Source of the DNA: Escherichia coli
Lineage (GTDB): Bacteria; Pseudomonadota; Gammaproteobacteria; Enterobacterales; Enterobacteriaceae
Strand: one strand, 5' to 3'
DNA length: 64,000 nt
Assembly: GCA_022969815.1 (NCBI GenBank)
Contig: GCA_022969815.1_4535.1
Part shown: one piece after another, positions 5,140-48,288 of the stretch
How the letters are laid out: the number at the start of each line of letters is the position of its first letter
Position numbering within the stretch: the first letter of the stretch is position 1
Notes under the pieces: model-generated
What the model was told of the DNA's origin: nothing
Database searches by the model: none
The model's input: only the letters and a program-made list of their open reading frames with translations
Translations under genes and position numbers: made by a program

Positions 5140-5496
5140 ATGGGTGCTATTATTTGGCTTGACGATTTACGTGATCCGAAAGATTACGGTTGTCCAGATG
5201 CAATCTGGTTTAAAACATCACAGGAACTTCTTGCCTCTCGTTACATGAATGAGGTGCAGAAGGGTTATCGTTCTGTAGACGAGTGGCATTTTGACAATGA
5301 TTTAGGAGAAGACTCTGATCAAGAGGGGTACGATGTTTTCTTGCGCTTGGAAGAACTTCTGTTTTTCGGTAAGCCTTGTTTTGGCAATCCTCTTATTTTT
5401 GTACATACTTCTAACCCAGCAGCGGCAGAGAAGTTTATGCTTGCAGAGGAATCTATGTTGAGGTATGGTATTGAAATGATTCGTGTGAACTATTAA
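5140..5496 (+). CDS. hypothetical protein (118 aa)
   Basis: ORF with GAGGAGG SD. Confidence 0.55.
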   Translation: MGAIIWLDDLRDPKDYGCPDAIWFKTSQELLASRYMNEVQKGYRSVDEWHFDNDLGEDSDQEGYDVFLRLEELLFFGKPCFGNPLIFVHTSNPAAAEKFMLAEESMLRYGIEMIRVNY

Positions 5497-5651: not shown

Positions 5652-6008
5652 ATGAGCAGTCTTGATCATAACATTTGTCACCAACCTCTCACCTGGATTG
5701 GTGAGGGTCATTATGCGCAACGTGTTATCGTCTGTGCTGCGAATAAGTATATTCTGAATAATGGTGAAGAGTTAATTATCCCTTGCGTTCGACATGCAAA
5801 TCCTGTACTATATGCACAGTTAAGCGTGTTGAAAGAAGCAGGTGCGATCAGCAAAACTTTGTGCACGCCAGATAATCAAGGCTTTATCGATCAGTATTAC
5901 AATTGGTGGAGTCGTGAGGATGCTTACATCATCGCGGAAAATGCTGACCAGATTGACCATGAGCGTAATGGTCACGACCATGAACTATTTAGCGAGGGAT
6001 TATACTAA
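5652..6008 (+). CDS. hypothetical protein; start at internal ATG with AAGGAGA SD
   Basis: ORF track 5607..6008; upstream part overlaps previous small ORF. Confidence 0.5.
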   Translation: MSSLDHNICHQPLTWIGEGHYAQRVIVCAANKYILNNGEELIIPCVRHANPVLYAQLSVLKEAGAISKTLCTPDNQGFIDQYYNWWSREDAYIIAENADQIDHERNGHDHELFSEGLY

Positions 6009-6553
6009 TGTTTATTACAAGCGATTTGCATTTTATGCACAAACGTATTCGAGAGTTTGCTCCTGAATATCGTCCGTGGGAAGATATGGACCACATGACA
6101 GAAGCTCTGATTGAAGCATGGAACAAATGTGCTACTACTCCTGGTGTTAAGATGTGGCATTTGGGCGACTTCTGTTTCGGGACTGAAGAAGATACCCGTA
6201 AGATTGCTTCCCGTCTCCAAGGAGATATCACTTATCTTGTTGGGAACCATGATTACAGCAAGCACCGAGAAGTGCTTGCAGAGTATGGCGAAGTGGTGTA
6301 TTATGACGAAGTGAAATACCAGAAGCTGTTCTTCGTCTTAAGTCATTACCCTATTGCCTCCTGGAACAAACAGGGTCGCGGTAGCATAATGCTCCACGGA
6401 CATTCTCACGGATCTTTCCCTGATGAAGCCTACGGTAAGATGCTTGACGTTGGTTGGGATGCACATGGCAAGATCCTGCACTTTGATGAAGTTATTGAAA
6501 TGATGGAAAAACGAGAAGTCATCACTGTAGACCATCATAAAATTATCCGATAG
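6008..6553 (+). CDS. calcineurin-like metallophosphoesterase
   Basis: phosphoesterase motif series DLHF..H, GDFCFG, GNHDY, HGHSH in translation. Confidence 0.6.
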   Translation: MFITSDLHFMHKRIREFAPEYRPWEDMDHMTEALIEAWNKCATTPGVKMWHLGDFCFGTEEDTRKIASRLQGDITYLVGNHDYSKHREVLAEYGEVVYYDEVKYQKLFFVLSHYPIASWNKQGRGSIMLHGHSHGSFPDEAYGKMLDVGWDAHGKILHFDEVIEMMEKREVITVDHHKIIR

Positions 6554-15237: not shown

Positions 15238-15855
15238 ATGAAGATAGTTTGTGATTGGGATCTGGTGGTTGCTCCACTGGATGTTGCTTGGCTGGAATGG
15301 TTGGTTAAAGTTAGCGGAGATTGTGTAGGCTTCTGCGGAGCTGTCAAAAATGTTGACTACGATCTTACTAAATACTTCCCAGGTTTCCGTGAGAAGTTTA
15401 ACATCGATCCTTACGGCTTTCTGGATAATTCCCATCTCTACGATACAATGGGATGTATCAAACCCATGGCTAACTTCTTAGAAGGTGTTGTGAAAGAGGG
15501 AGATAATGCACTTATTGCAAGTGTGACTAAAGGTGGACACCTTAGCTCAAAACACAAACATGTTTTAAGAACTTTGCCAACCATCGATTTTGGTAAAGGT
15601 TCTGGTAATGGTTTCTTTGCCACAAAAGAAAAATACCTATTGCCTTGTGATATTGCCATAGATGACAGGGCAGAAAACCTGTTGTATTTTCCAGATCATG
15701 TTGTTAAGATTTACTACAATACGATGTATAAAGATTTGTATTTGGAAGAATTAAAAAAGAAACCAAATGTAGTTGTCACAGGTTTGTACAATCAAGCAGA
15801 AACCTGTTGGCAAGTTTATTCAATGTTAAAAGAACGAGGAGAAATTAATGTCTAA
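15238..15855 (+). CDS. HAD-superfamily phosphatase, possibly 5'(3')-deoxyribonucleotidase
   Basis: N-terminal CDWDLV (DxD), downstream T/K and IAIDDRAEN (DD) motifs. Confidence 0.45.
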   Translation: MKIVCDWDLVVAPLDVAWLEWLVKVSGDCVGFCGAVKNVDYDLTKYFPGFREKFNIDPYGFLDNSHLYDTMGCIKPMANFLEGVVKEGDNALIASVTKGGHLSSKHKHVLRTLPTIDFGKGSGNGFFATKEKYLLPCDIAIDDRAENLLYFPDHVVKIYYNTMYKDLYLEELKKKPNVVVTGLYNQAETCWQVYSMLKERGEINV

Positions 15856-16843
15856 TATCAGTGCACAAGTCATCGCCCAGTCTATGAACGCAGAAGGGCA
15901 AGTGATTACAACTTTCGAACTGGAATACCCACGTATCATCCATTCTGAGTTGATGACGCACCGCTTATTCTCCCGCAACGCGGCTTCAAGCCGTGCTATT
16001 CCGGTGAAGACCCTGATTGAAATGGTTCGCAAAGAACCTGCTGCACCTGTTCGTTTTGGTCAACACCAACCTGGAATGCAGGATCAAGGCGTAGAATATG
16101 ATGCTCTTATTGGGGCAGGTTACTCAGGTCGTGAGTGGTGGAATTTAGCTGCGCTTAGTGCAGCAAACTTTGCAGAACAAATGGCGGAAGCTGGTTACGC
16201 GAAGCAGGTTTGTAATCGCCTTCTTGAACCATTCCAGAGAATGAAGACGGTTCTGACAGCAACCGAGTATGAAAACTTCTGGTGGCTACGTGATGACGCT
16301 GATGCTGATCCGACTATTGAAGCTTTAGCTAAAGTTATGTTTGAAGCTTATGAAGCCTCTACTCCAGAACTGCTGGCTCCAGGACAATGGCATACGCCTT
16401 ACGTAGATCACGTCTACGAGAACATCGGTCTGGAAGGTGATGATGTTTTGGTATTCGCTGGGTATAGCACTACAGATGAAAATGGCAATACTGTCATGCT
16501 GTCGCTGGAAGAAGCACTTGCAATCTCTTCTTCTTGTTGCGCACAAGTGAGCTATCGTCGTCTGAATGCAACTAAAGACAAAGCTTTGGATATCTACGGA
16601 CGTTTGCTTACTGGTCGTAAAGTCCACGCTTCTCCGTTTGAACATCAAGCTACACCTATGCAAGCAACCTTTGAACTTCTTGGTGAGAATGCGTCTGAAG
16701 ATATTCTTATTAACGTTCCGTGGTATGCAGCTTCTTGGGAAGTAGGTATTACTCACAGTGATCGTAACGAAAAACTGTGGTCTGGAAATTTCAAAGGATT
16801 TATCCAGCACCGTCAGCTTTTAAATAATCATACTAAATGGTGA
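15848..16843 (+). CDS. thyX: flavin-dependent thymidylate synthase ThyX-like
   Basis: MTHRLFSRNAASSRAIP matches ThyX signature (R)HR-x-x-S-x4-S-x-R. Confidence 0.7.
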   Translation: MSNISAQVIAQSMNAEGQVITTFELEYPRIIHSELMTHRLFSRNAASSRAIPVKTLIEMVRKEPAAPVRFGQHQPGMQDQGVEYDALIGAGYSGREWWNLAALSAANFAEQMAEAGYAKQVCNRLLEPFQRMKTVLTATEYENFWWLRDDADADPTIEALAKVMFEAYEASTPELLAPGQWHTPYVDHVYENIGLEGDDVLVFAGYSTTDENGNTVMLSLEEALAISSSCCAQVSYRRLNATKDKALDIYGRLLTGRKVHASPFEHQATPMQATFELLGENASEDILINVPWYAASWEVGITHSDRNEKLWSGNFKGFIQHRQLLNNHTKW

Positions 16844-17620: not shown

Positions 17621-19867
17621 GTGATTCGATACGTTACTAAATCAAATGGCAAGACAGAAGAGTTTAATCCTGAAAAACTGCGTAAATGGTCTGAATTTGC
17701 AGCAGGGAAACTGAACTGGTCGGAAATTGAATTAGAAGCTGTGAAACGTTGTTACGATGGGGTGTCTACTCGTGATTTACATAAAGCTATGATCGCCGCA
17801 TGTATTGACAAAAAGACCCAAGCGTATAGCGACATGGCAGGTCGATTGCTTCTCGGTATGATTTACAAACAGGCTCACGGGGGATACCACAGTATCCCTT
17901 CCCTGTACACCTTCTACCAGGATATGGTGAAGCGTGGACATTGGGCTAAGATGGATTATACCGAAGAAGAAATCAAAGAGATTGGTAAGATTGTCAAACA
18001 CAACAAGAATCTAACCTACGGTTATTCCGTTCTTCGTCAGATGGCAGATAAATACCTGGTTCGTGATGCTGTGAATGATGTTGTTCATGAGTCACCGCAA
18101 TTCCTGTTTATTGGTGTGGCAATGCGTGTTATGGAGATCCAGCCTAAAGATCGTCGTATTGACGATATCAAAAAGCTGTACACATATGTAAGTGATCTTC
18201 AGATTAACTTACCATCTCCATATCTGACAACGTTACGTACTCCGATCAAGGGTAGCGCGTCTTGTTGTTTATTCCGTGCAGACGATACAGCAGAGTCTTT
18301 GGCTATTGCAAACTATCTGGCACACGAATACACGTTAAATAATGCAGGGATTGGTGTTAACCTCCAGACCCGTGCAACGGGACAGGGTGTTAAGAACAAC
18401 CGTATCATTCATGGTGGTCTTCTCCCTTACCTGAAGTGGATGGAAGATAGTGTAGGAGCTTCTAAACAAGCGAGTCGTGGTGGTAGTGCAACGGTTACGT
18501 TCACAATCTTGGAGCCAGATTTTGAAGATCTGATTCGACTGAAGAACCCAACCACTCCGATCGATAAGCGTGTTGATAAGCTGGATTATTCTGTTGTTGT
18601 AAACCGCTCCTTCCTTCGCCGTGCTGCTAAAGGTGAAGAGTGGATGCTTGTGAGTTGTGACGAAGCACCGGAACTTTACGAAGCACTGTACAAAAGTGAA
18701 GAAGAGTTCGATGCTGTCTACGATAAAGTTAGTCGCCGTCGCATCAAAAAGAAAATTGTTAAGGCTCGTGACCTGTTGACTGAAATCATTGTTCAACGTG
18801 CAGAGACTGGACGTATTTATATGTTCTTCGCTGACAACGTAAACAATCACACTCCTTTCCTGGATACCGTGTATCAGTCGAACTTATGTCAGGAGATCTT
18901 TTTACCTACTAAAGCGTTCCATAAAATGACGGATCTCTTTACTGGTGAAAACACAGAAGATCAAGAATTGGCTTTATGCTTCTTGTCCTCTATCGTTGCT
19001 GGGCGAGTTACGCCGGAGCAATACGAAGATGTTGCGTACTACACTGTATTGACGATTGATAACGTTATTGAGACGATGGAATACCCATTCAAACATAACG
19101 AGATCACAGCTAAGGCTCGCCGCTCTATTGGCGTAGGTATTACAAACCTTGCACATTATCTGGCAAGCAACTTTGTAACCTATTCTGATCCTTATGCGAA
19201 GAAGCTGATGCATGAATTAGCAGAACGTCATTACTTCTGGTTGGCACAAGCCTCTCTGCGCTTGGCGAAAGAGAAAGGTAATGCCGAGTGGATGGATAAA
19301 ACTAAGTGGCCTCAAGGTTGGCTCCCTATTGACACCTACGCTAAAGCAGTAGATACTATTGGGGACTTTGAACTGAAGCTGGATTGGGAAGGCTTACGTG
19401 CTGGTATCATTGAACAAGGCGGTATCCGTAACAGTGTGCTTGCAGCAGTGGCCCCGAACGAATCAAGTAGCTTGGTGAGTAACACTACCAACTCACTCTA
19501 CCCTGTACGTGACACGATCATGTACAAACAGAGTCAGAAAGGTAACGTACTGTTTATCGTACCGGATTACGAAAAACTGAAAATGTTCTATCAGTCGGCG
19601 TGGGATACCCCGTCTAAAGATATTGCCGAGATGTACGGACTCTTCACTAAGTTTACGGATCAGGGTATCTCCTGTGATGCTTGGTTGGATTATTCCAAAA
19701 TGGAAGGTGGACGTTTATCAGTGAAAGCCGAGATGCAGTTTATCTTGACATTTGCAAAACTTGGTGGTAAATCTCTTTACTACCTGAACAGCCGAACCAA
19801 ATCAGCGGAATCTATGGCCCAAGAAGACAACCTGAAAGAGTCTGGATGTGAGGGTTGCAGCATGTGA
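17621..19867 (+). CDS. nrdA: ribonucleoside-diphosphate reductase alpha subunit (class Ia), GTG start
   Basis: 748 aa; N-terminal ATP-cone-like VTKSNGKTEEFNPEKL; length and downstream nrdB; AGGGAGGAG SD. Confidence 0.85.
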   Translation: MIRYVTKSNGKTEEFNPEKLRKWSEFAAGKLNWSEIELEAVKRCYDGVSTRDLHKAMIAACIDKKTQAYSDMAGRLLLGMIYKQAHGGYHSIPSLYTFYQDMVKRGHWAKMDYTEEEIKEIGKIVKHNKNLTYGYSVLRQMADKYLVRDAVNDVVHESPQFLFIGVAMRVMEIQPKDRRIDDIKKLYTYVSDLQINLPSPYLTTLRTPIKGSASCCLFRADDTAESLAIANYLAHEYTLNNAGIGVNLQTRATGQGVKNNRIIHGGLLPYLKWMEDSVGASKQASRGGSATVTFTILEPDFEDLIRLKNPTTPIDKRVDKLDYSVVVNRSFLRRAAKGEEWMLVSCDEAPELYEALYKSEEEFDAVYDKVSRRRIKKKIVKARDLLTEIIVQRAETGRIYMFFADNVNNHTPFLDTVYQSNLCQEIFLPTKAFHKMTDLFTGENTEDQELALCFLSSIVAGRVTPEQYEDVAYYTVLTIDNVIETMEYPFKHNEITAKARRSIGVGITNLAHYLASNFVTYSDPYAKKLMHELAERHYFWLAQASLRLAKEKGNAEWMDKTKWPQGWLPIDTYAKAVDTIGDFELKLDWEGLRAGIIEQGGIRNSVLAAVAPNESSSLVSNTTNSLYPVRDTIMYKQSQKGNVLFIVPDYEKLKMFYQSAWDTPSKDIAEMYGLFTKFTDQGISCDAWLDYSKMEGGRLSVKAEMQFILTFAKLGGKSLYYLNSRTKSAESMAQEDNLKESGCEGCSM

Positions 19868-19871
19868 TAAC

Positions 19872-19892
19872 AGGGGCTTCGGCCCCTTTTTA
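19872..19892 (+). terminator. intrinsic terminator
   Basis: AGGGGC-ttcg-GCCCCT hairpin plus TTTTTATT. Confidence 0.75.
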
Positions 19893-19905: not shown

Positions 19906-20244
19906 ATGAGCACACTTATAGTTTTACCTGGAGTAACCCCAATCTACCGACCTGGGTTTAAGCCTCTGTTGATTCGCCCTGAAGATTTTACCCCTACTTG
20001 GTGTCACCATTATCTTGGTGGGCTTGAAATAGCTAACATGCAGATTTGGGAATCTTTTTATCCAGAAGCCACGGCTTACGCAATAACAAGGGCAAGAAGT
20101 GAAGAAACAGTGACTGTTATACTTGGTAGAAGCGTATGGGAAGCACTGGAAGCTTTCTACCGGAGCAATGATTTTGAGGAAGAAGATATTTTAAGCTTAA
20201 GAGGTTTTTGTGAAATAGTGGAGGATTTAAATGGCAGCAATTAA
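19906..20244 (+). CDS. hypothetical protein (112 aa)
   Basis: ORF between nrdA and nrdB with GAGGAGAG SD. Confidence 0.5.
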   Translation: MSTLIVLPGVTPIYRPGFKPLLIRPEDFTPTWCHHYLGGLEIANMQIWESFYPEATAYAITRARSEETVTVILGRSVWEALEAFYRSNDFEEEDILSLRGFCEIVEDLNGSN

Positions 20245-21316
20245 TTTACATAACGAGACTTACAAAACAGGTAAATATCCAGTTTTCATGGGGGAACAGT
20301 TGGGGATTTTTGATTCTATCAACGTGACTTACCCTGAAATGCACCGTCTGTATAAACTCCAGAAAGCCCAAGATTGGGATGAGAATGAAGTGGATCTTAG
20401 TCAGACCCGTAAAGACTTTGTAGCGTGTTCAAAAAACAACTACGATGTTATGATCAAGAACTTGTCGTTCCAGTGGGAGAATGATTCCCTGGCAAAATCA
20501 ATCATCACTTTGTTCTCTCCGTTTTTGAGCAACAATGAAGCTTGCGCTATGATGATGAAGCAGAGTGAAATGGAAGTGCTTCATGCTCTAACTTACTCGG
20601 AGATCGTTCGCCAGTGTACTCCAAACCCTGTAGAAGTTATTGATCAGATTATGGAGAACGATAAGATCTTCAACCGTATGGGTATCATTGCAGAGATCAT
20701 GGGAGATTTGGAAGAAGCAGGTCACAAATATGCACTTGGTCTGATTGAAGCTGATGATAAACTACGTTTGCTGGTCATGAAAGGTCTGGTAGCCCTGATT
20801 GGTCTGGAAGGTATCCAGTTTATCTCTTCTTTCTCGGCAACGTTCGCCTTGGCAGAACAGCAACTGTTTGTAGGTGCTTGTAAACTGATTCAGAAAATCA
20901 TGTTGGATGAAATCCTGCATGTTAAAATGGACTATGCTGTCATTGATGCTCTGATGCAAGATCCTGTGTGGAAAAAGATCTACGAAGATAACATCGAAGA
21001 ACTTACGACTATTCTGGATACAGTTATCGCTCAAGAAGAGCAGTGGTGTGATTATCTGTTTAGTGAAGGACGTTTTATCGTTGGACTGAATGCTGAACTA
21101 TCCCGTCAATGGGTGTACTTCAATGCGGCTCCAATTTATCGTCGTCTGAAGATGAAGCACAGCTTTAAATCTCCTAAACAGAACCCACTACCTTGGATGG
21201 ACATTTGGTTAAACCCAGATCAGATTCAAGCAGCGGCGCAAGAGATCCAAGTTACAGCTTATAAACTGAACTCGGCTAACAAAGATGTTTCTGATGATAT
21301 GGAGTTTGACTTCTAA
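20231..21316 (+). CDS. nrdB: ribonucleoside-diphosphate reductase beta subunit
   Basis: 361 aa, di-iron ferritin-like E...H helices, adjacent to nrdA. Confidence 0.8.
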   Translation: MAAINLHNETYKTGKYPVFMGEQLGIFDSINVTYPEMHRLYKLQKAQDWDENEVDLSQTRKDFVACSKNNYDVMIKNLSFQWENDSLAKSIITLFSPFLSNNEACAMMMKQSEMEVLHALTYSEIVRQCTPNPVEVIDQIMENDKIFNRMGIIAEIMGDLEEAGHKYALGLIEADDKLRLLVMKGLVALIGLEGIQFISSFSATFALAEQQLFVGACKLIQKIMLDEILHVKMDYAVIDALMQDPVWKKIYEDNIEELTTILDTVIAQEEQWCDYLFSEGRFIVGLNAELSRQWVYFNAAPIYRRLKMKHSFKSPKQNPLPWMDIWLNPDQIQAAAQEIQVTAYKLNSANKDVSDDMEFDF

Positions 21317-21534: not shown

Positions 21535-21670
21535 GTTTCGTTTTTGCCCTATTTGTGGTGGTACAGGTAATGCCTTAATTAGTGCGGAGCAGTACAGCCC
21601 GTGTTGGCATTGTTCTGGTAGTGGTTTGGTAGTTGAAGAAAACAAAGAGGAGGAAAAAGATGGGGATTGA
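21527..21670 (+). CDS. possible small zinc-ribbon protein (47 aa), not in ORF track
   Basis: CPICGG ... CWHCSG; AAAGGAGG SD; ATGA overlap with upstream stop. Confidence 0.4.
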   Translation: MSEFRFCPICGGTGNALISAEQYSPCWHCSGSGLVVEENKEEEKDGD

Positions 21671-21986
21671 TATCGAGTGGAAGATGGTGCAAGGCGCACC
21701 ATATAAGAAATGGGAAGAAGTGTTTAAAGGCGATCCGCAGATTGAAGATCAATTCGATGGGGATTTCAACTGGTTTCTTTACGAAGGTATTGGACTGGTA
21801 AGCGTATCCCCGTGGTTTGATGCAGATCCTGAAGATTGTGTTTTTGGTATTGAACTTGCGTCAGGATGCAGCGCACGGGCAATAGACCTCACAAGTTTGG
21901 ATAAAAAAGCCAATGAGATCTATTTTGAACTGCTTAATAAGTATAACATTGAAACTGAAACGTTAGTATCACAAAACGTCTGGTAA
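21660..21986 (+). CDS. hypothetical protein
   Basis: internal ATG with GAGGAGGA SD (ORF track 21633..21986). Confidence 0.5.
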   Translation: MGIDIEWKMVQGAPYKKWEEVFKGDPQIEDQFDGDFNWFLYEGIGLVSVSPWFDADPEDCVFGIELASGCSARAIDLTSLDKKANEIYFELLNKYNIETETLVSQNVW

Positions 21987-21995: not shown

Positions 21996-22193
21996 ATGAA
22001 AGACCAAATGATTAATGGACCTCGTGTAACAGTCAGTCCTAAAACTTTTGCATCTCTTCTGGACGACACTGGTGAGGTTTATACTTACACAAGAGATTCA
22101 CTGCCTCTGCCTGAAAGTGCACAGGGTTCACGTTCGCTTTTTTATAAAGGTGTTCTTTTTACGGAAGCAAAAGAAGACAAGGAGACTAAATGA
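21996..22193 (+). CDS. hypothetical protein (65 aa)
   Basis: ORF with AAGGAGA SD. Confidence 0.45.
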   Translation: MKDQMINGPRVTVSPKTFASLLDDTGEVYTYTRDSLPLPESAQGSRSLFYKGVLFTEAKEDKETK

Positions 22194-23182
22194 GATACCT
22201 GGTAACAGGTGGTCTTGGTTTCATTGGGAGCGCCGTAGTGCGCTCTCTTTGTCAAGATCCTAATAACGAAGTTTTTGTTATTGATAAAATGGGCTACGCA
22301 GCCGATATTGAAAATGTAGGGGATATCACTCACGCCAAACTAAGTATGACAGATTTGGCAAACGAAGCACAGGTCAAAAGTTTAGTGGTAGAATGCAACC
22401 CTGATTTCATCATTCATTTAGCGGCAGAGAGTCATGTGGACAACTCTATCAAGAATCCACGAGCTTTCATCGACTCCAATATCATCGGTACATATAATCT
22501 GTTAGAAGCTGCAAGGCTTCTTCCTAAGAACAAGCTGAAGATGTTTGTACACGTCTCTACAGACGAAGTGTACGGTGATATGGAGGACTCTGGTGCTCCA
22601 TTTACCGAAGAGACAGCTTATGCTCCTTCAAGCCCATACAGCGCGTCTAAGGCGGCATCTGATCACCTTGTCAAAGCTTGGCACCGTACTTACGATTTGC
22701 CTGTAGTGATAACCAACTGTTCCAATAACTTTGGGCCTTACCAACACCCTGAAAAATTGATTCCGAAAGTGATCACGAACATCTTGACAAGCAAAGAAAT
22801 TCCAGTGTACGGTAAAGGCGATCAAGTAAGAGATTGGCTTTTTGTTGAGGACCATGCGCGAGCTATTCTTCAAGTAGCTTCTGGCGGCGAACCTGGACAA
22901 ACTTACAACGTAGGCACACGTAATCCTAAAACCAATATGGAGATCATCTATATGATTTGTGATTACATGGATGCCGTACACCCGCAAAGTGGAACCTACC
23001 CGTCTTCGAGTTTAATAACTTTTGTTGAAGATCGTAAAGGACATGACTTGCATTATGAAATCAACCCTGCTAAGATTGAATCTGAACTGGGTTGGAGTGC
23101 AAACTCCACATTTGAACAAGACCTTTACTCTACGATAGAGTGGTATTTAAACAACCCTCAATGGTGGAGAGAAAAGATTTAA
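22190..23182 (+). CDS. rmlB: dTDP-glucose 4,6-dehydratase
   Basis: TGGLGFIGS Rossmann motif, YSASKAASD (YxxxK), [14 protein letters not shown] segment characteristic of RmlB. Confidence 0.8.
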
Positions 23183-23190
23183 GGAGGGTT

Positions 23191-24069
23191 ATGAAAGGTA
23201 TTATTTTGGCGGGAGGAAGTGGAACCCGCCTACACCCTGTAACACGCAGTGTGAGCAAGCAATTGCTCCCTGTGTATGACAAACCTATGATTTATTATCC
23301 TTTATCAGTCTTGATGTTGGCAGATATTAAGGATATCTTAATCATCACAACCCCAGGCGATCAGGAAGATTTTGAGTATCTTCTTGGAGATGGATCTATG
23401 TTTGGGATAAAAATCACTTACGCAATGCAGTCTGAACCACGAGGTCTTGCAGATGCTTTCATCATCGGTAAAGATTTTATTGAGGAAGATTCCGTTGCCC
23501 TTATTTTAGGGGATAACTTGTTCTTCGGACAAAGTTTCGGAAAACTTCTTATCCAAGCCAGCGAAATGGTGGATGTTTGGGGTGGAGCTTGTATCTTCGG
23601 GTATCTGGTGAAAGATCCTGAACGATTCGGTGTTGTTGAGTTCGGAAGTAATCGCCAAGCTATCTCTATTGAAGAGAAACCGGAACATCCTAAATCAGAC
23701 TATGCCGTCACGGGTTTGTATTTCTATGACAACTCTGTTGTTCAACGTGCATTGGAAGTAACTCCTTCTGATCGTGGAGAACTGGAGATCACAGATATCA
23801 ATCGCAGCTACCTCGAAGACAGAAAGTTACAAGTTGAAGTTCTTGGAAGAGGATTCACTTGGCTGGATACAGGGACACACGCCAGTCTAATGGAAGCAGG
23901 TCAATTCGTGCAGACTATTGAGAACTGCCAAGGATTGAAGATTGCGTGCCTGGAAGAGATTGCTTTCAAAAAAGGGTGGATTTCTTTAGAGACTTTGGTG
24001 TATCATGGCAACTCATTGAAGAAAACAGAGTACGGGCAATATCTGTTAAAATTAGCGGAGGGTAAATGA
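23191..24069 (+). CDS. rmlA: glucose-1-phosphate thymidylyltransferase
   Basis: [19 protein letters not shown]-terminus; AAGGAGGG SD; ORF track start 23140 is upstream. Confidence 0.85.
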
Positions 24070-24626
24070 AAATAAAAGAATTAAGTATTCCTGGTCTGGT
24101 TGTCTTTAAACCTCAAGTTTACAAAGATGATCGTGGTTCCTTCACGGAGACGTTTAACGAGAAGATTTACGAAGAGGTTATTGGCAAACAAACGTTTGTT
24201 CAGGATAACCATTCATTCTCTACTTTAGGTGTTCTTCGCGGAATGCACTTTCAAGTAAATAACCCGCAAGGTAAGCTTGTACGTTGCACACGAGGTGAAG
24301 TTTTTGACGTGGCTGTAGATCTTCGTGAAGGTAGTCCAACCTTCGGACAATGGGAAGGTGTGATTCTTAGTGGGTGTAACAATAAACAGTTGTGGATTCC
24401 ACCTGGCTTTGCACATGGTTTTGTTGTAACCTCTTATGAAGCCAACTTTGAATACAAGTGCACCAACTACTACGATCCGGCATCTGAACGTAGTTTGTTG
24501 TGGAACGATCCTACTGTGAATATTGATTGGGGTTTTGATATGATTTTCAATGATGAGAATTTTGTACCTATCATTTCGGAAAAGGATGCACAAGCTAAAA
24601 CACTGAAGGAGCTTATGGAATCATGA
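24066..24626 (+). CDS. rmlC: dTDP-4-dehydrorhamnose 3,5-epimerase
   Basis: 186 aa cupin-like; [11 protein letters not shown] and HFQ...Q..KLV motifs; position between rmlA and rmlD. Confidence 0.75.
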
Positions 24627-25465
24627 AAACATATTTAGTATTGGGTGGTAATGGTCAATTAGGTCAGGCACTGCGTAAAGTGGTGCCGGAGAATGTGACT
24701 TTGGTGTATCCAGAAAAGCGTGTAGATATCACCAGTTTTGAAGCTGTAAGAAAAGCGATCATGGACACCCCAAATATTAACGGTGTTATCAACTGTGCGG
24801 CATACACTGCGGTGGACAAAGCAGAGACAGATGTTGATGCAGCTATGGCTGTAAATTTACACGGGGCAGCTAATATTGCTGCCTTCTGTAAGGCTTGGGA
24901 TATTGACATGGTGCATATTTCTACTGACTATGTGTTCAACAGCGATAAACCGTTGTTCCATCAGGATGAACCCAACCCTATCAATGTTTACGGGTTATCT
25001 AAAAGTTTGGGTGAAGCTGCTGTTCGTGGTATCTACCATAAAGCTTTTATTATCCGCACGGCTTCTGTGTATAGCGAGTTTGGTAACAACTTCCTGAAGA
25101 CTATGGTATCTCGTTACAACGATGGTCAAAGAGACTTCTCGGTAGTTGCAGATCAAACATCTCGACCAACTTATGCCCCAGATTTGGCTAAGATGATTTT
25201 CCAAGTGTTGGAAACAGGATATAACACCCGTACTTTGCATTACGCTGGGAACATCACTGTTTCGTGGCACCAGTTCGCAAAAATGATATTGACACGTATG
25301 CCTGAATCTGTTATTATACACCCGACCTCTGCTGCAACCTATAATTCGGCAGCGATGCGACCAGCAAAGTCTATACTAATTACGTCTGGTTGGAACGAAC
25401 CTTCAAGCGTCAGACAAGGTATTGAAGAATCTTTAGCAGTATTACTTAATAAGGAGAGAGCATGA
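24623..25465 (+). CDS. rmlD: dTDP-4-dehydrorhamnose reductase
   Basis: LVLGGNGQLG Rossmann motif, YGLSKSLGE (YxxxK), 280 aa, last gene of rml set. Confidence 0.7.
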   Translation: MKTYLVLGGNGQLGQALRKVVPENVTLVYPEKRVDITSFEAVRKAIMDTPNINGVINCAAYTAVDKAETDVDAAMAVNLHGAANIAAFCKAWDIDMVHISTDYVFNSDKPLFHQDEPNPINVYGLSKSLGEAAVRGIYHKAFIIRTASVYSEFGNNFLKTMVSRYNDGQRDFSVVADQTSRPTYAPDLAKMIFQVLETGYNTRTLHYAGNITVSWHQFAKMILTRMPESVIIHPTSAATYNSAAMRPAKSILITSGWNEPSSVRQGIEESLAVLLNKERA

Positions 25466-25722
25466 ATTTTGTAATTTACGGCAAACCAAATTGCCAGTTC
25501 TGTGAAATGTCCAAACAACTCTTAACTATGCGTGAAAAAGAGTTTGAATATCTGACATTAGATCAGGATTATGATTTTGAAGTGATGACTCAAGCAGTGA
25601 TCGCAGCAACAGGAATTGCACCTCGCACCTTCCCGCAGATTTTTGTGGAAGAGCTTGGAGCAGTAACCCACGTAGGCGGTTTTACCGAACTGCGTGATTT
25701 CATGGCTCAAATTGCGGAGTAA
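25462..25722 (+). CDS. glutaredoxin-like thioredoxin (T4 NrdC-type)
   Basis: YGKPNCQFCEMSKQLL CxxC active site, about 86 aa. Confidence 0.65.
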   Translation: MNFVIYGKPNCQFCEMSKQLLTMREKEFEYLTLDQDYDFEVMTQAVIAATGIAPRTFPQIFVEELGAVTHVGGFTELRDFMAQIAE

Positions 25723-25885: not shown

Positions 25886-26389
25886 ATGGCTAAAAAAGTA
25901 GTAGATGAGTTTGACATGTTGGCTGTTGATGAAGGACTGAAGCTGACTGTTTACCCAGACACCTTGGGATATTGGACAGTCGGCATTGGACACCTCTTAA
26001 CTAAAAAGAAAGATAAGGCGGAAGCTATTCGTATTCTGGATGCTCTTGTTGGTCGCAAGACTAACGGAGTTATCACAGAGAAAGAAGCCCGTGCTATCTT
26101 TGCTGACGATGTTGAAAAGGCGAAAAAACAGATTAAAAACAGTTCCATTCTTGCCCCAATTTATGATAAGGTGAGTGAAACCCGTAAACTGGCAATCATC
26201 AATATGGTGTTCCAGTTGGGGTTAACCGGAACGGAAGGCTTTAAAAATAGCTTGACTTTAATCAGTAATTCGTACTATACTCAAGCTGGTAAAAACATGA
26301 GAGCCAGTAAATGGTACTCTCAAACGCCAAACCGTGCAGAACGAGTAATCAAGGTTCTAACATCTGGGACTCTTGATTCTTACAACTAA
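25886..26389 (+). CDS. T4-type lysozyme (glycoside hydrolase family 24 endolysin)
   Basis: DEGLKLTVYPDTLGYWTVGIGHLLTKK and NGVITEKEA, MVFQLG, WYSQTPNRAERV closely follow T4 gene e lysozyme. Confidence 0.85.
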   Translation: MAKKVVDEFDMLAVDEGLKLTVYPDTLGYWTVGIGHLLTKKKDKAEAIRILDALVGRKTNGVITEKEARAIFADDVEKAKKQIKNSSILAPIYDKVSETRKLAIINMVFQLGLTGTEGFKNSLTLISNSYYTQAGKNMRASKWYSQTPNRAERVIKVLTSGTLDSYN

Positions 26390-26391
26390 CA

Positions 26392-26413
26392 AAGGGGCGC
26401 AAGCCCCTTCTAT
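26392..26413 (+). terminator. terminator-like hairpin
   Basis: AAGGGGC-gcaa-GCCCCTT followed by short T-containing tract. Confidence 0.5.
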
Positions 26414-26426
26414 AAGGAGTGCTACT

Positions 26427-27182
26427 ATGGGAAAAACAGCTACCGCTAAATCACCGCGCCAGAAGTTAGCTTCTAATGCGAAAGTAGAAAGTCGTTATGC
26501 TGCAAAAGCAGTTGGAAATGATGACTATCGTTTAGATGGGTTTTCACCAGAAGGAGATCAGCAACAAATCGTTCAAAGTATGATCTGGAATGATCTTACA
26601 GTCGTAAATGCTCCAGCAGGGACAGGCAAGACTTCCGTGACTTTATGGAAAGCTTTGCAGATGCTTCGAGCAGGAGATTTCCGTAAGCTTCTTTTTATTA
26701 AAAACCCGACTGAAGTTGGTGATGATCAGATTGGTTTCCTTTCAGGAGATAAAACTGATAAACTGGCGGCGCACTACGAATCAACCAAACGAATCTTCCA
26801 GCAGTTTATGACTGCAAACAAATTAGAGAATGATATTGGTTCCGGTAAGATTGAACTTAATATCCCGAACTACCTACTGGGTGCTACCCTGGACAACACT
26901 ATCGTGATCATTGATGAAGCACAGCTTATGTCTCCAGAAACATTAAAACTTCTGGTAGAGCGTGCAGGGATCAACACTCATGTTGTTGTTCTTGGAGATG
27001 TTCGTCAAACCTACGCTATCAAAAAGCGTGCAAACGGTTTGAAAGATCTTCTTGACAAAGTTGCCCCTGAAGGTGAAGATGGTGTTCGTGTCCCTCTGGT
27101 AGACTTTATCGGTTATGTGCAGTTAACCACAGATGACAACAAACGATCTCGTTTGTCTAAGTTCATCACGGAAATTTATTAA
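26427..27182 (+). CDS. phoH: PhoH-like ATPase
   Basis: Walker A NAPAGTGKTSVTL, Walker B IVIIDEAQ; AAGGAG SD. Confidence 0.75.
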   Translation: MGKTATAKSPRQKLASNAKVESRYAAKAVGNDDYRLDGFSPEGDQQQIVQSMIWNDLTVVNAPAGTGKTSVTLWKALQMLRAGDFRKLLFIKNPTEVGDDQIGFLSGDKTDKLAAHYESTKRIFQQFMTANKLENDIGSGKIELNIPNYLLGATLDNTIVIIDEAQLMSPETLKLLVERAGINTHVVVLGDVRQTYAIKKRANGLKDLLDKVAPEGEDGVRVPLVDFIGYVQLTTDDNKRSRLSKFITEIY

Positions 27183-36228: not shown

Positions 36229-36893
36229 TGACCCATTTAAAACCTTTTGGTGGAAAACCTATTGTGGCGTATCAAGTAGATCGTGATGATTGGGAAGGCA
36301 GTGTAGTTGTCTTTGGTAATCATTTCTTTGCTGTGCGTCGTAAAGGCGCAAGTATGTTGGATTGTGAGGAGGAGTATTGTCATGTCTCCCGCGCCAAAGA
36401 ATTCGACCAGTATGCAGAAAAAGGTTTTGTGCCTGTCAAAGCTTTACTGGAGGCAGGATGGTGGATACACTCTGCTCATGATGGTGTTAGACTTGACGAG
36501 TCTGTAGATAATCTTGAGGCAGATTTTGACGAATGGGAAGATGGCATGTATGTTGAGGAGGATCTTGTATTTTCCCTTGACGAGAAAAGTGTGTGGAAGA
36601 ACTGGGAAGAAATGGAACGTCACGCGCATTTTATCAACAACGCTTTGATTCGTAAAGCCTGGTTCACGGAGGCGGTGAAGATAGCGTATCCGCAATTCAC
36701 CTTTACAGAGGTTTGGGGCGGTCCCCACCACATCACCCATACAGCATTTTTCGACTTCCCTGGTTCACGTTACAAAGGTAATGTAATGTGGGACTGGGAT
36801 GAGAATGAAGTACCATCTGTTCAAGACTTTCGTTGTTATGTTTGCCAAGGCGATCAAGAAGCCCTTGACAAATACCTGCAAAGTCTGGTATAG
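36225..36893 (+). CDS. hypothetical protein (222 aa)
   Basis: ORF overlapping upstream stop; last gene before terminator. Confidence 0.5.
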   Translation: MMTHLKPFGGKPIVAYQVDRDDWEGSVVVFGNHFFAVRRKGASMLDCEEEYCHVSRAKEFDQYAEKGFVPVKALLEAGWWIHSAHDGVRLDESVDNLEADFDEWEDGMYVEEDLVFSLDEKSVWKNWEEMERHAHFINNALIRKAWFTEAVKIAYPQFTFTEVWGGPHHITHTAFFDFPGSRYKGNVMWDWDENEVPSVQDFRCYVCQGDQEALDKYLQSLV

Positions 36894-43075: not shown

Positions 43076-43429
43076 TCATAGTCTTCCTCCATCTTTAAGA
43101 CGACTCTTAACCCAGTGCAGACGATCTGGATCTGTGTGTTGTGAAGCATTTTCCGAATCAAGTAAGTAAGCCTTTCTTCCGAACGGGTAGGTTTCACATA
43201 AACCTGCTTCAATAAACTGATTATACATCTCTTTCATAGTGTTTTCGATTAAATACCAGTTACCTTCTGGAAGGTCTAAATCATACAACCAATACTCAAG
43301 ATTACCACACAACCCTACAGAAGAGCTAAACACGTCTTCCATAACAAGGCCCGTCTCGTCTCCATTTTCAGCCCAAGATAACCAAGCCTGATAAAAATCT
43401 AAAAGTAATTTACTTGATGCAATCTTCAT
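43076..43429 (-). CDS. member of 10-copy paralogous small-protein family (function unknown)
   Basis: FYQAWLSWAENG ... GLCGNL ... YPF ... HTDPDRLHWVKSRL; start at ATG with AGGAGAG SD. Confidence 0.55.
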   Translation of the reverse strand: MKIASSKLLLDFYQAWLSWAENGDETGLVMEDVFSSSVGLCGNLEYWLYDLDLPEGNWYLIENTMKEMYNQFIEAGLCETYPFGRKAYLLDSENASQHTDPDRLHWVKSRLKDGGRL

Positions 43430-43431
43430 GC

Positions 43432-43617
43432 TCACTCTCCTACACTTTCTGGTGTGCCATCCCAAGCACCTAAGACTTCTTTCAGGTGTGCACGGGGTTC
43501 TTTAAAATACTCTTCCATTTTATCCAGAAGATCGTCTGTGTTTGGGCTGTATCCCAACATCCCACGTAAAACTCTTTCTTCTTGCAAGACCAACCATCTA
43601 TGATAGCTTCGAATCAT
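43432..43617 (-). CDS. hypothetical protein (61 aa); start at internal ATG with GGAGG SD
   Basis: ORF track 43432..43749 would overlap upstream gene by about 150 nt. Confidence 0.4.
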   Translation of the reverse strand: MIRSYHRWLVLQEERVLRGMLGYSPNTDDLLDKMEEYFKEPRAHLKEVLGAWDGTPESVGE

Positions 43618-44071
43618 AATATTCCTCCAGGAGTTTCTCAATTCTCTGAACGGTCTTAGTATCCCAATAAACCTTCTTAAAGTCAAGTGTTCCGTGTGCA
43701 TTTCTTTTTGTTTCGAAGTAATAACCACCTTCGCGCTCCAAGCGATCACGGATCACTTCTATAAGATGATTTTTAGAGTTTTTTGTCAAGCAATAGTCAT
43801 ACTCTCCTTTTAAGAGATCTATAGAAGGTTGACGGTTATCTCCGACCTGGGAAATCTTCCAGCTAACCAGCGATCCTTGGATACCAACATCTGTCTGCTT
43901 CACAGAGAAGCCTTTTGAACCCCAGCCTCCCAATGTGACCATTGTTAGTGGTTCTCCTGTTAGAGAGCGGCTAAGGGTGTCATTACGTGGTCCACCTAAA
44001 GTGGAAAACCATTTGAAAATCTTCTTAAACATTTTATGCTCCTCTCGTTCAACATGCACAAACAATAACAC
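43598..44071 (-). CDS. hypothetical protein (157 aa)
   Basis: ORF with GAGAGGAG SD. Confidence 0.5.
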   Translation of the reverse strand: MLLFVHVEREEHKMFKKIFKWFSTLGGPRNDTLSRSLTGEPLTMVTLGGWGSKGFSVKQTDVGIQGSLVSWKISQVGDNRQPSIDLLKGEYDYCLTKNSKNHLIEVIRDRLEREGGYYFETKRNAHGTLDFKKVYWDTKTVQRIEKLLEEYYDSKLS

Positions 44072-44093
44072 CCTCCGAAGAGGGTGTCAATGA

Positions 44094-44321
44094 TTATTCG
44101 ATCACAAAAAACGTAGCATTCAAACGTCTGAATGTCGCAGGGCTATATCCGTGATCACACTCTTCAATGAACTGATCTGTAGTCTGATCGTAACTATAAT
44201 ACTGATCATTTTGGAAATGGAAGGACGCACAGAACAAATCATCTCCTACAGTCCACACTGCCACAAAGTTCTTACCGAACGGATAACCTTCAACTGCTTT
44301 CATTTTCCCTCCTCTTACCAA
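44094..44321 (-). CDS. hypothetical protein (75 aa)
   Basis: ORF with GAGGAGGG SD. Confidence 0.5.
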   Translation of the reverse strand: MVRGGKMKAVEGYPFGKNFVAVWTVGDDLFCASFHFQNDQYYSYDQTTDQFIEECDHGYSPATFRRLNATFFVIE

Positions 44322-44584
44322 GAAACATACATAGAGTAAACAAGATCATTACAGTCTGTCGAGAACGTAGCACTGCAACCTTGAGATCTTAATTTGTCAC
44401 AAATCCCGCGTACAATCGAAGCTTGTAGTTCTTTACCTTGCGGTAGACCTAAAGCTTTCACTGGGTGTTGAATCTGTATGTTGTAGTAACCCTCTTCGGC
44501 TGCTGTTGTGATTAAGGTTTTTGCTCGTTGGATATACTCAAAGTTCACAGAGTCTGCCAAAGCGTGTAAAGAATATGCGTCCAT
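44315..44584 (-). CDS. hypothetical protein (89 aa)
   Basis: ORF with GAGGAGG SD. Confidence 0.5.
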   Translation of the reverse strand: MDAYSLHALADSVNFEYIQRAKTLITTAAEEGYYNIQIQHPVKALGLPQGKELQASIVRGICDKLRSQGCSATFSTDCNDLVYSMYVSW

Positions 44585-44593
44585 GTTACCTCC

Positions 44594-44929
44594 TCAAGAA
44601 CGATCGAGTTTCATTAAAAATACAATCATAGCTGCACGCAGGGGTTTATCGTCTCCACGGGACGGTACACCTTCTGTTTTCGCAAGCCAACCGCGAGGAA
44701 AACCATCTTCCCCTGTTACAGGGCTGATACAAATCCTGTGTTTTACTATGATAGCCCAAGCATCTGCTGGATCATTGCAGTAATCATACCAAGTGTAATT
44801 GCCGTTGCAGTCATTTCCCACCGATCGTCCATCCGCATTGTGCGGATAACCTAAAGGCTTGACACCGTGGACTGCTGCAAACACACGTTTGTTGATTTCA
44901 AAATCACTCATTACTCCATATTCTGTCAT
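44594..44929 (-). CDS. hypothetical Cys/Trp-rich protein (111 aa)
   Basis: ORF with AGGAGAA SD. Confidence 0.5.
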   Translation of the reverse strand: MTEYGVMSDFEINKRVFAAVHGVKPLGYPHNADGRSVGNDCNGNYTWYDYCNDPADAWAIIVKHRICISPVTGEDGFPRGWLAKTEGVPSRGDDKPLRAAMIVFLMKLDRS

Positions 44930-45255
44930 GTTTTCTCCTTGTTTTTGGATACTGGAAGGATGTTGATCATAACTACACCGTTATAATCATAAGTATCGTT
45001 AATTTGAGTCTCTACTTCCCGAATATCATCCAGAGTGGGAGGCCAATTTGTAAATTGTACATCAATATTCCCCACACCCAGACTCTTACCCTCCCTCGGC
45101 CTGTAGTTGTACACAAAAACCGTATTGTAGGAGAGTTTTTGATGTTTGTTACGCTTCTTAAAAGTGCGGTCTAAGGCATAGATGCTTCCTATGACACATA
45201 CCGCTACAGCAACAACAACAATGTTAAAATAAAGTTCTTGTAAAATTGCACTCAT
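44926..45255 (-). CDS. hypothetical protein with N-terminal transmembrane helix
   Basis: NIVVVAVAVCVIGSIYAL hydrophobic segment. Confidence 0.5.
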   Translation of the reverse strand: MSAILQELYFNIVVVAVAVCVIGSIYALDRTFKKRNKHQKLSYNTVFVYNYRPREGKSLGVGNIDVQFTNWPPTLDDIREVETQINDTYDYNGVVMINILPVSKNKEKT

Positions 45256-45257
45256 TG

Positions 45258-45587
45258 TTATTTACCCCCTTTCAGTTTTGATTTAACCCATGCCAACCGT
45301 TCTTTGTTCATATGTTGCGTGCCGTGCTCATAATCCTGCATATAAGCTAAGTCACCAAATGGGTACAAGGTGTCTTGGAAATCTTTGAAAAGCATTTCTG
45401 CAAATGCTTCGGTAACTTCGTCAATTTCTTTTAATGAAAACCCTTGTTCCAGTAACCAGTAAGACAAGGAGTCGCAAAGCCCAACAAGTGTGCTGAAGGG
45501 TTTGACATTCTCTCTTTTCGGAGCCACTTCAGCCCAGGCCAACCATGCCTTAAGAAATTGTTGGATAATCACTTCGTTCTTTGTCAT
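45258..45587 (-). CDS. member of 10-copy paralogous small-protein family
   Basis: FLKAWLAWAEVAP ... GLCDSL ... YPF ... HMNKERLAWVKSKL. Confidence 0.55.
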   Translation of the reverse strand: MTKNEVIIQQFLKAWLAWAEVAPKRENVKPFSTLVGLCDSLSYWLLEQGFSLKEIDEVTEAFAEMLFKDFQDTLYPFGDLAYMQDYEHGTQHMNKERLAWVKSKLKGGK

Positions 45588-45595
45588 TTTAGCTC

Positions 45596-46276: not shown

Positions 46277-46303
46277 CTCCTCAATCGTTATCAGGATTCC
46301 ATT

Positions 46304-46507
46304 TTACAAACTTGAAGCAGTTATTGTCAAGGAATTTATTGGCATCTTTTCCTGTTTCCAAACGGTGCATTGTTCTTTAAGGGCTATCTGCTCATTCTGC
46401 ACGTCTGATACCGCATTAGCAAAGAGGATCAGAAATCCCAAAAAGACCAACATCAATAACAGATTAAAGAAAGTTTGAAAACTCATGCATCCTCCCATTT
46501 GATCCAC
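46304..46507 (-). CDS. small membrane protein (67 aa)
   Basis: LLLMLVFLGFLILFA hydrophobic segment. Confidence 0.45.
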   Translation of the reverse strand: MDQMGGCMSFQTFFNLLLMLVFLGFLILFANAVSDVQNEQIALKEQCTVWKQEKMPINSLTITASSL

Positions 46508-47669: not shown

Positions 47670-47690
47670 AAATCCTCCAGTAACCTTTGG

Positions 47691-48005: not shown

Positions 48006-48035
48006 GTTCTCTCTCCTCTTGTTGTTGATGCAATC

Positions 48036-48064
48036 ACTATAATATGTCTGACACTCTCTGTCAA
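48036..48064 (-). promoter_or_regulatory. sigma70-like promoter (minus strand)
   Basis: minus strand TTGACA - 17 nt - TATAGT upstream of 47691..48005. Confidence 0.5.
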
Positions 48065-48276: not shown

Positions 48277-48288
48277 TTTTATCTCCTC

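Follow-up and report, generated by a model that had tools for sequence, protein, structure and literature searches.

Why does a lytic phage of Escherichia coli encode its own synthesis of deoxythymidine diphosphate (dTDP)-L-rhamnose, and where does the sugar go? This question is raised by a stretch of 64,000 nucleotides (nt) from an E. coli assembly (contig GCA_022969815.1_4535.1; the whole stretch is called the window here), in which four adjacent genes, rmlB-rmlA-rmlC-rmlD, occupy positions 22190-25465 on the plus strand. The window belongs to a Phapecoctavirus-like E. coli myovirus (subfamily Stephanstirmvirinae), with phiWec179 as the nearest relative (97% identical). An initial annotation of the letters alone had proposed the pathway and offered three roles for it: hypermodification of phage DNA, glycosylation of virion proteins or remodelling of host surface polysaccharide. 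The reading favoured here, with modest confidence, is that the cluster provides a dTDP-L-rhamnose supply independent of the host serotype, which feeds the phage's own cassette of glycosyltransferases (GTs) acting on an acceptor other than DNA. The pathway is well established for the subfamily, and its presence does not amount to a new type of system. New are the location of a GT cassette outside the window, a two-module structure of the rml cluster and a case against bulk DNA modification. This group, with phAPEC8, phi92, the BASEL phages Bas60-62 and numerous candidates for therapy, includes coliphages of the very broadest host range, and a phage-made glycan could affect host range, defence evasion or the immunogenicity of therapeutic preparations.

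Four Rml enzymes encoded in a phage genome

All four open reading frames (ORFs) are present and intact, and the motifs from which the enzymes had been recognised, the Rossmann motif and PYSASK of RmlB as well as the GGSGTRLHP of RmlA, are all there. Profile hidden Markov models, proposed in the initial annotation as a check, confirm the assignments: all four proteins pass the equivalog cut-offs of NCBIfam, and Pfam agrees. RmlB reaches 431.6 bits against TIGR01181 (cut-off 365.1), and its next-best models for other enzymes are LegB (140 bits), GalE (123 bits) and CDP-glucose dehydratase (98 bits). It matches Salmonella enterica RmlB (PDB 1G1A) with 374 bits, keeps the sequence STDEVYGD, and retains the GGxGFIG (GxxGxxG) NAD Rossmann motif and the catalytic residues of TDE and YxxxK. 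RmlA, of the short form, reaches 465.6 bits against TIGR01207 (cut-off 360.65), and 410 bits against PDB 4HO0, relative to which the motifs GGSGTRL, LGDN, EEKP and WLDTG are retained; against E. coli RffH (1MC3) it scores 398 bits. Both proteins score about alike against their rml and rff counterparts, namely S. enterica RmlB and E. coli RffG for RmlB, and E. coli RffH and the RmlA structures for RmlA. The enterobacterial model PRK15480 is missed by RmlA (408 vs a cut-off of 588), which is therefore not an orthologue of E. coli RfbA.

RmlC passes TIGR01221 with 243.6 bits (cut-off 155.75) and matches PDB 2IXI (Pseudomonas aeruginosa RmlC) and 1RTV with 209 bits; the catalytic set aligned to 2IXI consists of His (in RGMHFQ), Lys (QGKLVR), Tyr (FEYK) and Asp (WNDP). 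RmlD is the weakest of the four predicted family assignments. It passes TIGR01214 narrowly (244.6 bits vs a cut-off of 224.05) and fails the enterobacterial model PRK09987 (107 vs 308). The best match in the PDB is Bacillus anthracis RfbD (3SC6, 172 bits), relative to which STDYVF and YGLSK, carrying the Thr and YxxxK of the catalytic triad, are kept; S. enterica RmlD (1KBZ) reaches only 93 bits. Among the 80 loci kept from a pattern-limited scan, the best bacterial relatives of RmlD are 37-43% identical and all from Bacteroidota, and from these matches no bacterial donor was assigned.

The initial annotation would have been overturned by a better fit to UDP-sugar epimerase or dehydratase families. 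The opposite was found, with models for GalE, CDP-glucose, GDP-mannose and UDP-sugar enzymes scoring several-fold lower, and these NCBIfam score gaps rule out UDP- or GDP-sugar enzymes in place of Rml enzymes. The complete pathway is encoded, with its four steps contiguous and co-oriented and their starts either overlapping or linked by Shine-Dalgarno sequences. The predicted enzymology is near certain: glucose-1-phosphate and dTTP would be converted to dTDP-glucose, dTDP-4-keto-6-deoxyglucose, dTDP-4-keto-L-rhamnose and finally dTDP-L-rhamnose.

The last step is where a different end product could arise. Sequence alone separates RmlD poorly from Tll-type reductases, and another dTDP-6-deoxyhexose, such as 6-deoxy-L-talose, might be formed by an RmlD-like reductase or a divergent RmlC. 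The margin of 20 bits over TIGR01214, the failure against PRK09987, the Bacillus enzyme as closest solved relative, the ~40% identity of the best bacterial matches listed, and the fact that RmlC and RmlD form the fast-evolving, recombining half of the cluster would all fit such a product. Both proteins are nevertheless above their equivalog cut-offs with all catalytic residues kept, and three divergent alleles (window, ukendt and phi92) are annotated to the same families, which makes another sugar quite improbable.

Distribution, origin and modular structure of the cluster

The rml block was compared by megablast with 50,697 phage records, of which 71 matched. Identity over the block is 97.4% for Escherichia phages phiWec179 and phiWec186, 95.8% for Escherichia phages phiWec188 and phiWec190, 92.6% for 'Pseudomonas' phage PsgM04F and ~83% for phAPEC8, ESCO5, ukendt and others, all of them Phapecoctavirus, ~150 kb myoviruses of the Stephanstirmvirinae. 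Rml annotations are present in most of the 71 records (>60 GenBank records). The host labels of some related records are doubtful, as MG065650 ('Campylobacter phage B15'), MG065656, OR584014 ('Pseudomonas phage PsgM04F') and OP562383 ('Acinetobacter phage ABPW7') share 92-99% identity with genomes of E. coli Phapecoctavirus or Justusliebigvirus in the rml or GT blocks.

The same four genes, in the same order and with the same flanks, are found in phAPEC8 (JX561091), phi92 (NC_023693) and other Stephanstirmvirinae. The order from nrdB through rmlB-rmlA-rmlC-rmlD, the glutaredoxin gene (grx) and the lysozyme gene to PhoH is shared by Phapecoctavirus, phi92 (Justusliebigvirus) and Klebsiella phage 05F01 (unclassified Stephanstirmvirinae), so that the synteny suggested for checking does extend to relatives. 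The earlier remark that a full deoxysugar pathway is unusual in a phage holds overall, with RmlC detected by tblastn in 170 of the 50,697 records, but not in this subfamily, where the pathway is universal. About 132 of the 170 records come from the subfamily, and the others are from Synechococcus phages, an Acinetobacter jumbo phage, Sphingomonas phage PAU and gut-metagenome fragments.

The cluster is an already published hallmark of the Stephanstirmvirinae and has been discussed since 2020. DNA rhamnosylation, the usual guess in print for its role, was proposed by analogy with the T-even phages (Olsen et al. 2020; PMC7552041), and the idea of a 'rhamnose modification' was later repeated with the same caveat (Vitt et al. 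2024; PMC10844046). The rml genes are also discussed by Maffei et al. (PMC8594841).

Since rml genes are typically bacterial, it was also considered that the segment is host-derived, an assembly chimera or decaying cargo without a function for the phage; a host origin had been named in the initial annotation as a finding that would refute it. Nothing further speaks for any of these. Each of the 5,426 complete E. coli genomes has a weak rfb or rff match with at most ~66% identity and at most 46% coverage of the block, and the best match has 63-66% nt identity. In addition, the ORFs are intact, with coupled starts and Shine-Dalgarno sites, the GC content of the block (42.4%) matches that of the window (41.8%), and position and order are alike in Phapecoctavirus, Justusliebigvirus and the unclassified Klebsiella phage. 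The comparison with the E. coli genomes and the synteny across these three genus-level lineages refute a host origin, which is extremely improbable, and by all these sequence comparisons the segment is phage DNA.

The enzyme families and the chemistry are those of the enterobacterial rfb/rml operon and of rffG/rffH. The phage cluster differs from rfb in its order, B-A-C-D instead of the B-D-A-C seen in the feature order of the E. coli matches, and in its nt identity of at most 66%. It also has no Wzx/Wzy and no adjacent O-unit GTs, and its flanks are nrdB and glutaredoxin. Among the matches listed, phage RmlD is nearer to enzymes of Firmicutes and Bacteroidota than to enterobacterial RmlD. The cluster would be an old module of the Stephanstirmvirinae, kept vertically after insertion between nrdB and glutaredoxin.

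Within the cluster, two halves with different histories can be distinguished. Relative to phAPEC8-type phages, RmlB and RmlA are 94-97% identical at the amino acid level, whereas RmlC and RmlD are 62-65% identical. For ukendt, the values are 94% for RmlB, 97% for RmlA, 62% for RmlC, 65% for RmlD and 76% for glutaredoxin, with 86-89% for the flanking NrdB, lysozyme and PhoH. The nt identity to ukendt, profiled in 200-nt windows over a MAFFT alignment, is 83-92% over 22300-24099, drops to 63-72% over 24100-25699 and is ~80% thereafter. This drop indicates that the rmlC-rmlD-grx segment was exchanged by recombination, with an approximate breakpoint at the rmlA/rmlC junction (Table 1). The divergent allele is carried by the clade of the window (phiWec179, phiWec181, phiWec186, phiWec188 and PsgM04F), and the alleles of phi92 are about equally far from those of the window and of ukendt.

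Every E. coli makes dTDP-4-keto-6-deoxyglucose through RffH and RffG for the enterobacterial common antigen (ECA), while RmlC and RmlD are present in some serotypes only. Each of the 5,426 E. coli genomes has rmlB- and rmlA-like matches, which fits the ubiquitous RffH and RffG. In phage ESCO37, described without rmlA and rmlB in the Bertin-group collection (PMC10269720), exactly these two genes are cleanly deleted, and rmlC, rmlD, grx and the GT cassette are kept. The rmlB-rmlA half would be dispensable because both steps can be replaced by host RffG and RffH. Read most simply, L-rhamnose, the end product, is what the phage requires in whichever host it infects, with rmlC-rmlD as the indispensable half and rmlB-rmlA as a booster.

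The glycosyltransferase cassette and the acceptor of the sugar

The initial annotation had recognised no GT in the window, and this was reproduced: no GT and no polytopic membrane protein was detected by Pfam among the coding-strand ORFs of at least 100 amino acids. The scan covered 2.8-38.2 kb on the plus strand, except for 17.6-26 kb, and 38.6-64 kb on the minus strand; in the excepted interval, the larger ORFs were assigned separately, and the short ORFs 19906-20244 and 21633-21986 were left out. The families found include an ATP-dependent DNA ligase, RdgC, an RNase H-fold exonuclease, a ThyX-like thymidylate synthase, an NT5C-like nucleotidase, PhoH, an HslV-like peptidase, metallophosphatases, DUF7275/7277, Sir2, a resolvase and NinX. 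Matches to 'Serglycin' were dismissed as artefacts of the GS linkers by which ORFs had been concatenated. The absence is true for the window and at the same time an artefact of its boundary, as relatives carry four adjacent GT genes ~70 kb away.

The search beyond the window, which had also been suggested, found this cassette in relatives that are 83-97% identical over the rml block. The RefSeq genome of ukendt has four adjacent genes annotated as 'glycosyltransferase' (gp216-219, 145.5-148.7 kb), ~73 kb from rml and directly adjoining primase/helicase, an N6-adenine methyltransferase and DNA polymerase I. The cassette is also present in phiWec188 (L005, 3805-6945) and phiWec186, whose rml blocks have 96-97% identity to that of the window, as well as in phAPEC8, phi92, ESCO37 and others. 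A megablast with the cassette gives 71 records, the same count as with the rml block, and tblastn at ≥60% identity places GT1 in 128 records and RmlC in 132; the co-occurrence is read from these matching counts and the organism breakdowns, the record lists not having been intersected. The cassette and a SleB-like endolysin adjoin a 'tellurite-resistance-like' gene set of TerC, TelA, TerD and vWA-TerF (L086, Logan SRR10097270; ukendt 1-7 kb).

The cassette consists of two GT-B proteins, one GT-A protein and one short GT, and transmembrane-grade hydrophobic segments were found in none of the four. GT1 and GT2 (314 and 315 amino acids) are paralogues belonging to phrog_7162 and to Pfam Glyco_trans_1_2/1_4. 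The AlphaFold model of GT1 (pLDDT, the predicted local distance difference test, 94) has a GT-B fold, with retaining GT4 enzymes as nearest folds: GlgM, MshA, BshA, Gtf3/GtfC, PglA, TarM, SdgB and WaaG. GT3 (227 amino acids) has a DDD motif, which is invariant, and the motif YGFED, and its model (pLDDT 88) has a GT-A fold, nearest to A197 of Sulfolobus turreted icosahedral virus, vaccinia H3 and TarP, with viral GT2/GT25-like proteins. The short GT4 protein (187 amino acids), which is GT-A-like, matches phage GT PHROGs only. Searches of PDB sequences with GT1 and GT3 found nothing. The acceptor was also sought in the structure models of GT1 and GT3, but the generic GT-A and GT4-type matches do not discriminate between DNA, protein and lipid.

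Distant homologues of the GTs occur in a replication module (L087), at the head of a packaging/structural operon (L090) and in a bacterial chromosome (L092), and the small proteins flanking them at these three loci are unrelated to GT4 and GT3. Replication-module contexts are likewise seen in a soil phage and in a relative with 49% identity. A functional link between the rml cluster and the GT cassette is moderately supported, since one phage group carries both blocks.

DNA hypermodification, the first role listed in the initial annotation, would mean that the phage GTs rhamnosylate a modified base in the phage DNA and thereby evade DNA-targeting defences, analogous to the glucosylated hydroxymethylcytosine of the T-even phages. 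T-even phages combine the hydroxymethylase gp42 with alpha- and beta-glucosyltransferases, use the UDP-glucose of the host and encode no sugar-nucleotide pathway. The two systems are alike in having phage GTs near replication genes and a sugar-nucleotide donor drawn from the nucleotide pool. The rml cluster is located amid nucleotide-metabolism genes, the cassette abuts primase/helicase and DNA polymerase, and related GTs lie in the replication module of a distant soil phage. GT3 weakly matches Pfam TAGT (E=1.3e-3; 19 bits, under the cut-off of 27.5) and, over 63 residues only, phrog_842, the T-even beta-glucosyl-HMC (hydroxymethylcytosine) alpha-glucosyltransferase (E=3e-7). There is also a C5-methyltransferase-like gene at 35545-36228, and the proposal has been published (Olsen et al. 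2020; PMC7552041).

However, by Pfam no ThyA-type hydroxymethylase, TET/JBP dioxygenase or other base-activating enzyme is found in the window, the annotation of the complete RefSeq genome of ukendt contains none either, and the only thymidylate-synthase-like gene is of the ThyX type. The similarity of GT3 is confined to the generic nucleotide-binding/DxD region, its fold searches return generic GT-A enzymes and no DNA glycosyltransferase, and GT1 resembles GT4-type enzymes and not the T4 alpha- and beta-glucosyltransferases, to which, unlike in T-even phages, no homology was seen by fold search. Relatives are also sensitive to restriction: phi92-like phages, which share these rml and GT genes, have been described as 'exceptionally susceptible' to restriction-modification (RM) systems (PMC8594841). 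In a restriction fragment length polymorphism analysis with HincII, all but three of 42 new isolates were cut, and the three uncut phages do not include the Phapecoctavirus and Justusliebigvirus isolates of that study (PMC10269720). Of the three roles offered, DNA modification is the least supported and is judged unlikely, as is bulk DNA glycosylation in general; a protein or a glycan is the most likely acceptor.

A role in the host envelope has to be weighed as well. In enterobacteria, dTDP-rhamnose feeds the O-antigen and dTDP-4-keto-6-deoxyglucose feeds ECA. The phage pathway might therefore boost the dTDP-sugar pool of the host for these glycans, their normal destination, or buffer dTTP, and the GT cassette would be functionally unrelated. 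The location of the cluster within a dTTP-producing block (nrdAB, ThyX-like and NT5C-like genes) fits this explanation, as do the distance of ~70 kb between the rml and GT blocks, which form no single operon, and the GT homologues in phages without visible rml nearby. E. coli K-12 makes no O-antigen owing to an rfb defect, and many such phages were isolated on K-12 hosts and still keep the genes. Moreover, the retention of rmlC-rmlD when rmlB-rmlA is lost indicates that L-rhamnose matters, not dTTP use or an ECA precursor. A strictly lytic phage has little time for envelope turnover, and the near-equal record counts of the cassette and rml would be a coincidence. With this balance, a boosted host pool or a dTTP buffer is not considered likely either.

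The favoured account, a phage-owned rhamnose supply for the phage's own GTs, would proceed as follows. The rml genes would probably be expressed together with the dTTP-making genes, as suggested by their position, and would provide dTDP-L-rhamnose in any E. coli host regardless of its O-serotype. The most likely user of the sugar would be the GT cassette with its two GT-B/GT4-like proteins, one DxD-containing GT-A protein and one short GT-A-like protein, which may assemble a short glycan with rhamnose on a protein of the phage or the host, or on a lipid-linked or envelope glycan. In the fold searches, the GT4- and GT2-like folds are those of protein O-glycosylation, lipid-linked oligosaccharides and lipopolysaccharide cores, and the enzymes nearest to GT1 include the protein O-glycosyltransferases Gtf3, GtfC and SdgB. 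The GT-A/GT-B pair stands at the head of a packaging and structural operon in one distant phage. Virus-encoded GT sets glycosylate virion proteins in mycobacteriophages and giant viruses, and giant viruses have complete rhamnose or deoxysugar pathways. No glycoprotein of these coliphages is reported in the literature searched. The data are compatible with glycosylation of virion or host proteins and with remodelling of envelope glycans.

Several observations weigh against this account. No experimental function for the phage rml genes was found in the searchable literature. The narrow pass of RmlD and its best listed matches of ~40% identity mean that the last step could yield a different 6-deoxyhexose epimer. 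The GT cassette is tied to dTDP-rhamnose only by presence in one phage group, and the donor specificity cannot be read from the modelled GT folds. Small phages have distant homologues of the GT-A and GT-B pair, and the ~21 kb visible around these contain no rml gene, and it follows from such rml-free neighbourhoods that these GTs can use other donors. In addition, the cassette adjoins replication genes in several lineages, as a DNA-modifying system would.

A further reading, in which rml and the four GTs form one system that places a rhamnose-containing oligosaccharide on an acceptor new to coliphage glycosylation, is put forward as a tentative and rather doubtful idea. The acceptor in this case may be virion or host proteins, or else phage DNA at sparse or site-specific positions whose number would not suffice to block the tested RM systems. 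If true, the glycan could aid a broad host range or the evasion of defence systems or immunity, and selection on the final sugar would be the reason why rmlC-rmlD has recombined independently.

Gene layout and other features of the window

The cluster is located in a dense series of plus-strand genes that runs from nrdA through PhoH in the 19-29 kb ORF listing (Table 1), and its position inside a phage nucleotide-metabolism block, as described in the initial annotation, is confirmed by nrdA, nrdB and the ThyX-like gene upstream. Between nrdB and rmlB there are three or four small ORFs. The last of these, with 65 amino acids, has gp068 as its counterpart in phi92, and the region does not align with ukendt. 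The translational coupling noted earlier was also found, as ATGA overlaps occur at the junctions of the upstream ORF with rmlB, rmlA with rmlC, rmlC with rmlD and rmlD with grx. The rmlB/rmlA junction, an 8-nt gap with a Shine-Dalgarno sequence, is the sole junction without such an overlap, and Shine-Dalgarno sequences are present at all junctions of the cluster. The mechanical ORF of rmlA starts at GTG 23140; the start was set at ATG 23191 because of the preceding Shine-Dalgarno sequence TAAGGAGGGTT and the length of 292 amino acids annotated in relatives.

Downstream of rmlD, glutaredoxin and lysozyme follow as had been noted, with a 49-amino-acid ORF listed between them. The glutaredoxin probably serves ribonucleotide reductase and not the sugar pathway. 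A scan for promoters and terminators gave site counts equal to the shuffled expectation. Terminator-like GC-rich hairpins with T-runs are located on the plus strand at 19872-19887, after nrdA, and at 28408-28423, after the HslV-like gene, and these are the only convincing sites of this kind flanking the nrdB-rml-grx-lysozyme-PhoH block.

Table 1. Positions of the rml cluster, its neighbours and a family of small paralogues in the window
Feature	Position	Strand	Basis or remark
nrdA	17621-19867	+	ORF listing
nrdB	20231-21316	+	ORF listing
Small ORF, 65 aa (amino acids)	21996-22193	+	Stop overlaps rmlB start codon (ATGA)
rmlB, dTDP-glucose 4,6-dehydratase, 330 aa	22190-23182	+	TIGR01181
rmlA, glucose-1-phosphate thymidylyltransferase, 292 aa	23191-24069	+	TIGR01207
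Approximate recombination breakpoint	24070-24100		Drop in nt identity at rmlA/rmlC junction
rmlC, dTDP-4-dehydrorhamnose 3,5-epimerase, 186 aa	24066-24626	+	TIGR01221
rmlD, dTDP-4-dehydrorhamnose reductase, 280 aa	24623-25465	+	TIGR01214
Glutaredoxin (grx)	25462-25722	+	PF00462, 41.8 bits
Phage lysozyme	25886-26389	+	PF00959
PhoH	26373-27182	+	ORF listing, Pfam
Nine paralogues	43076-43465, 45258-45587, 48898-49224, 49657-49983, 53421-53708, 54058-54375, 58552-58920, 58895-59260, 59262-59687	-	

Several genes elsewhere in the window are of interest in their own right. The ThyX-like protein (15848-16843, plus strand; phrog_85) is long, with 331 amino acids, and divergent, with a Pfam Thy1 score of 33 bits and the signature THR...S.R instead of RHR; considered as a possible hydroxymethylase, it matched no sequence of the PDB at E<0.01. 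The C5-type methyltransferase-like gene (plus strand; 227 amino acids, phrog_757) has FDGSG, PPC and ENP motifs and is translationally coupled to a gene of 222 amino acids at 36225-36893. A second methyltransferase-like gene (28868-29377, plus strand; 169 amino acids, phrog_799) has an NPPF motif, and both were missed by Pfam. A 'cyclic-phosphate processing receiver' protein of the cREC_REC family (PF20274, E=5e-12) adjoins a metallophosphoesterase (5140-5496 and 6008-6553, both on the plus strand). The metallophosphoesterase is annotated in phiWec179; ukendt has an RNA ligase beside it, and in phiWec179, the nearest relative, no gene of that size is annotated at this place.

Five tRNA genes are located at 400-1176 on the minus strand (Tyr-GTA, Ser-GCT, Ser-TGA, Arg-TCT and Met-CAT), a cluster known in this phage group (cf. 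ukendt). Nine paralogous small ORFs of ~95-140 amino acids, with a W..W/GLC..L/PF/H...R..WV pattern and no Pfam family, are scattered over 43076-59687 in the minus-strand block of small genes, which are presumed to be early genes. Further paralogue pairs are 48289-48843 with 55925-56224 and 56290-56802 with 56815-57333. A serine recombinase/resolvase (45596-46276, minus strand; PF00239, E=2e-15) is also found among the small minus-strand genes of this lytic phage. Finally, the region of ~60000-61200 is AT-rich (35% GC in 60001-61000), has few ORFs and contains short direct and inverted repeats, including 31-nt units at 60724-60825 and four copies of the motif AATGAGAATxATTATxAT, and could be a regulatory or origin region.

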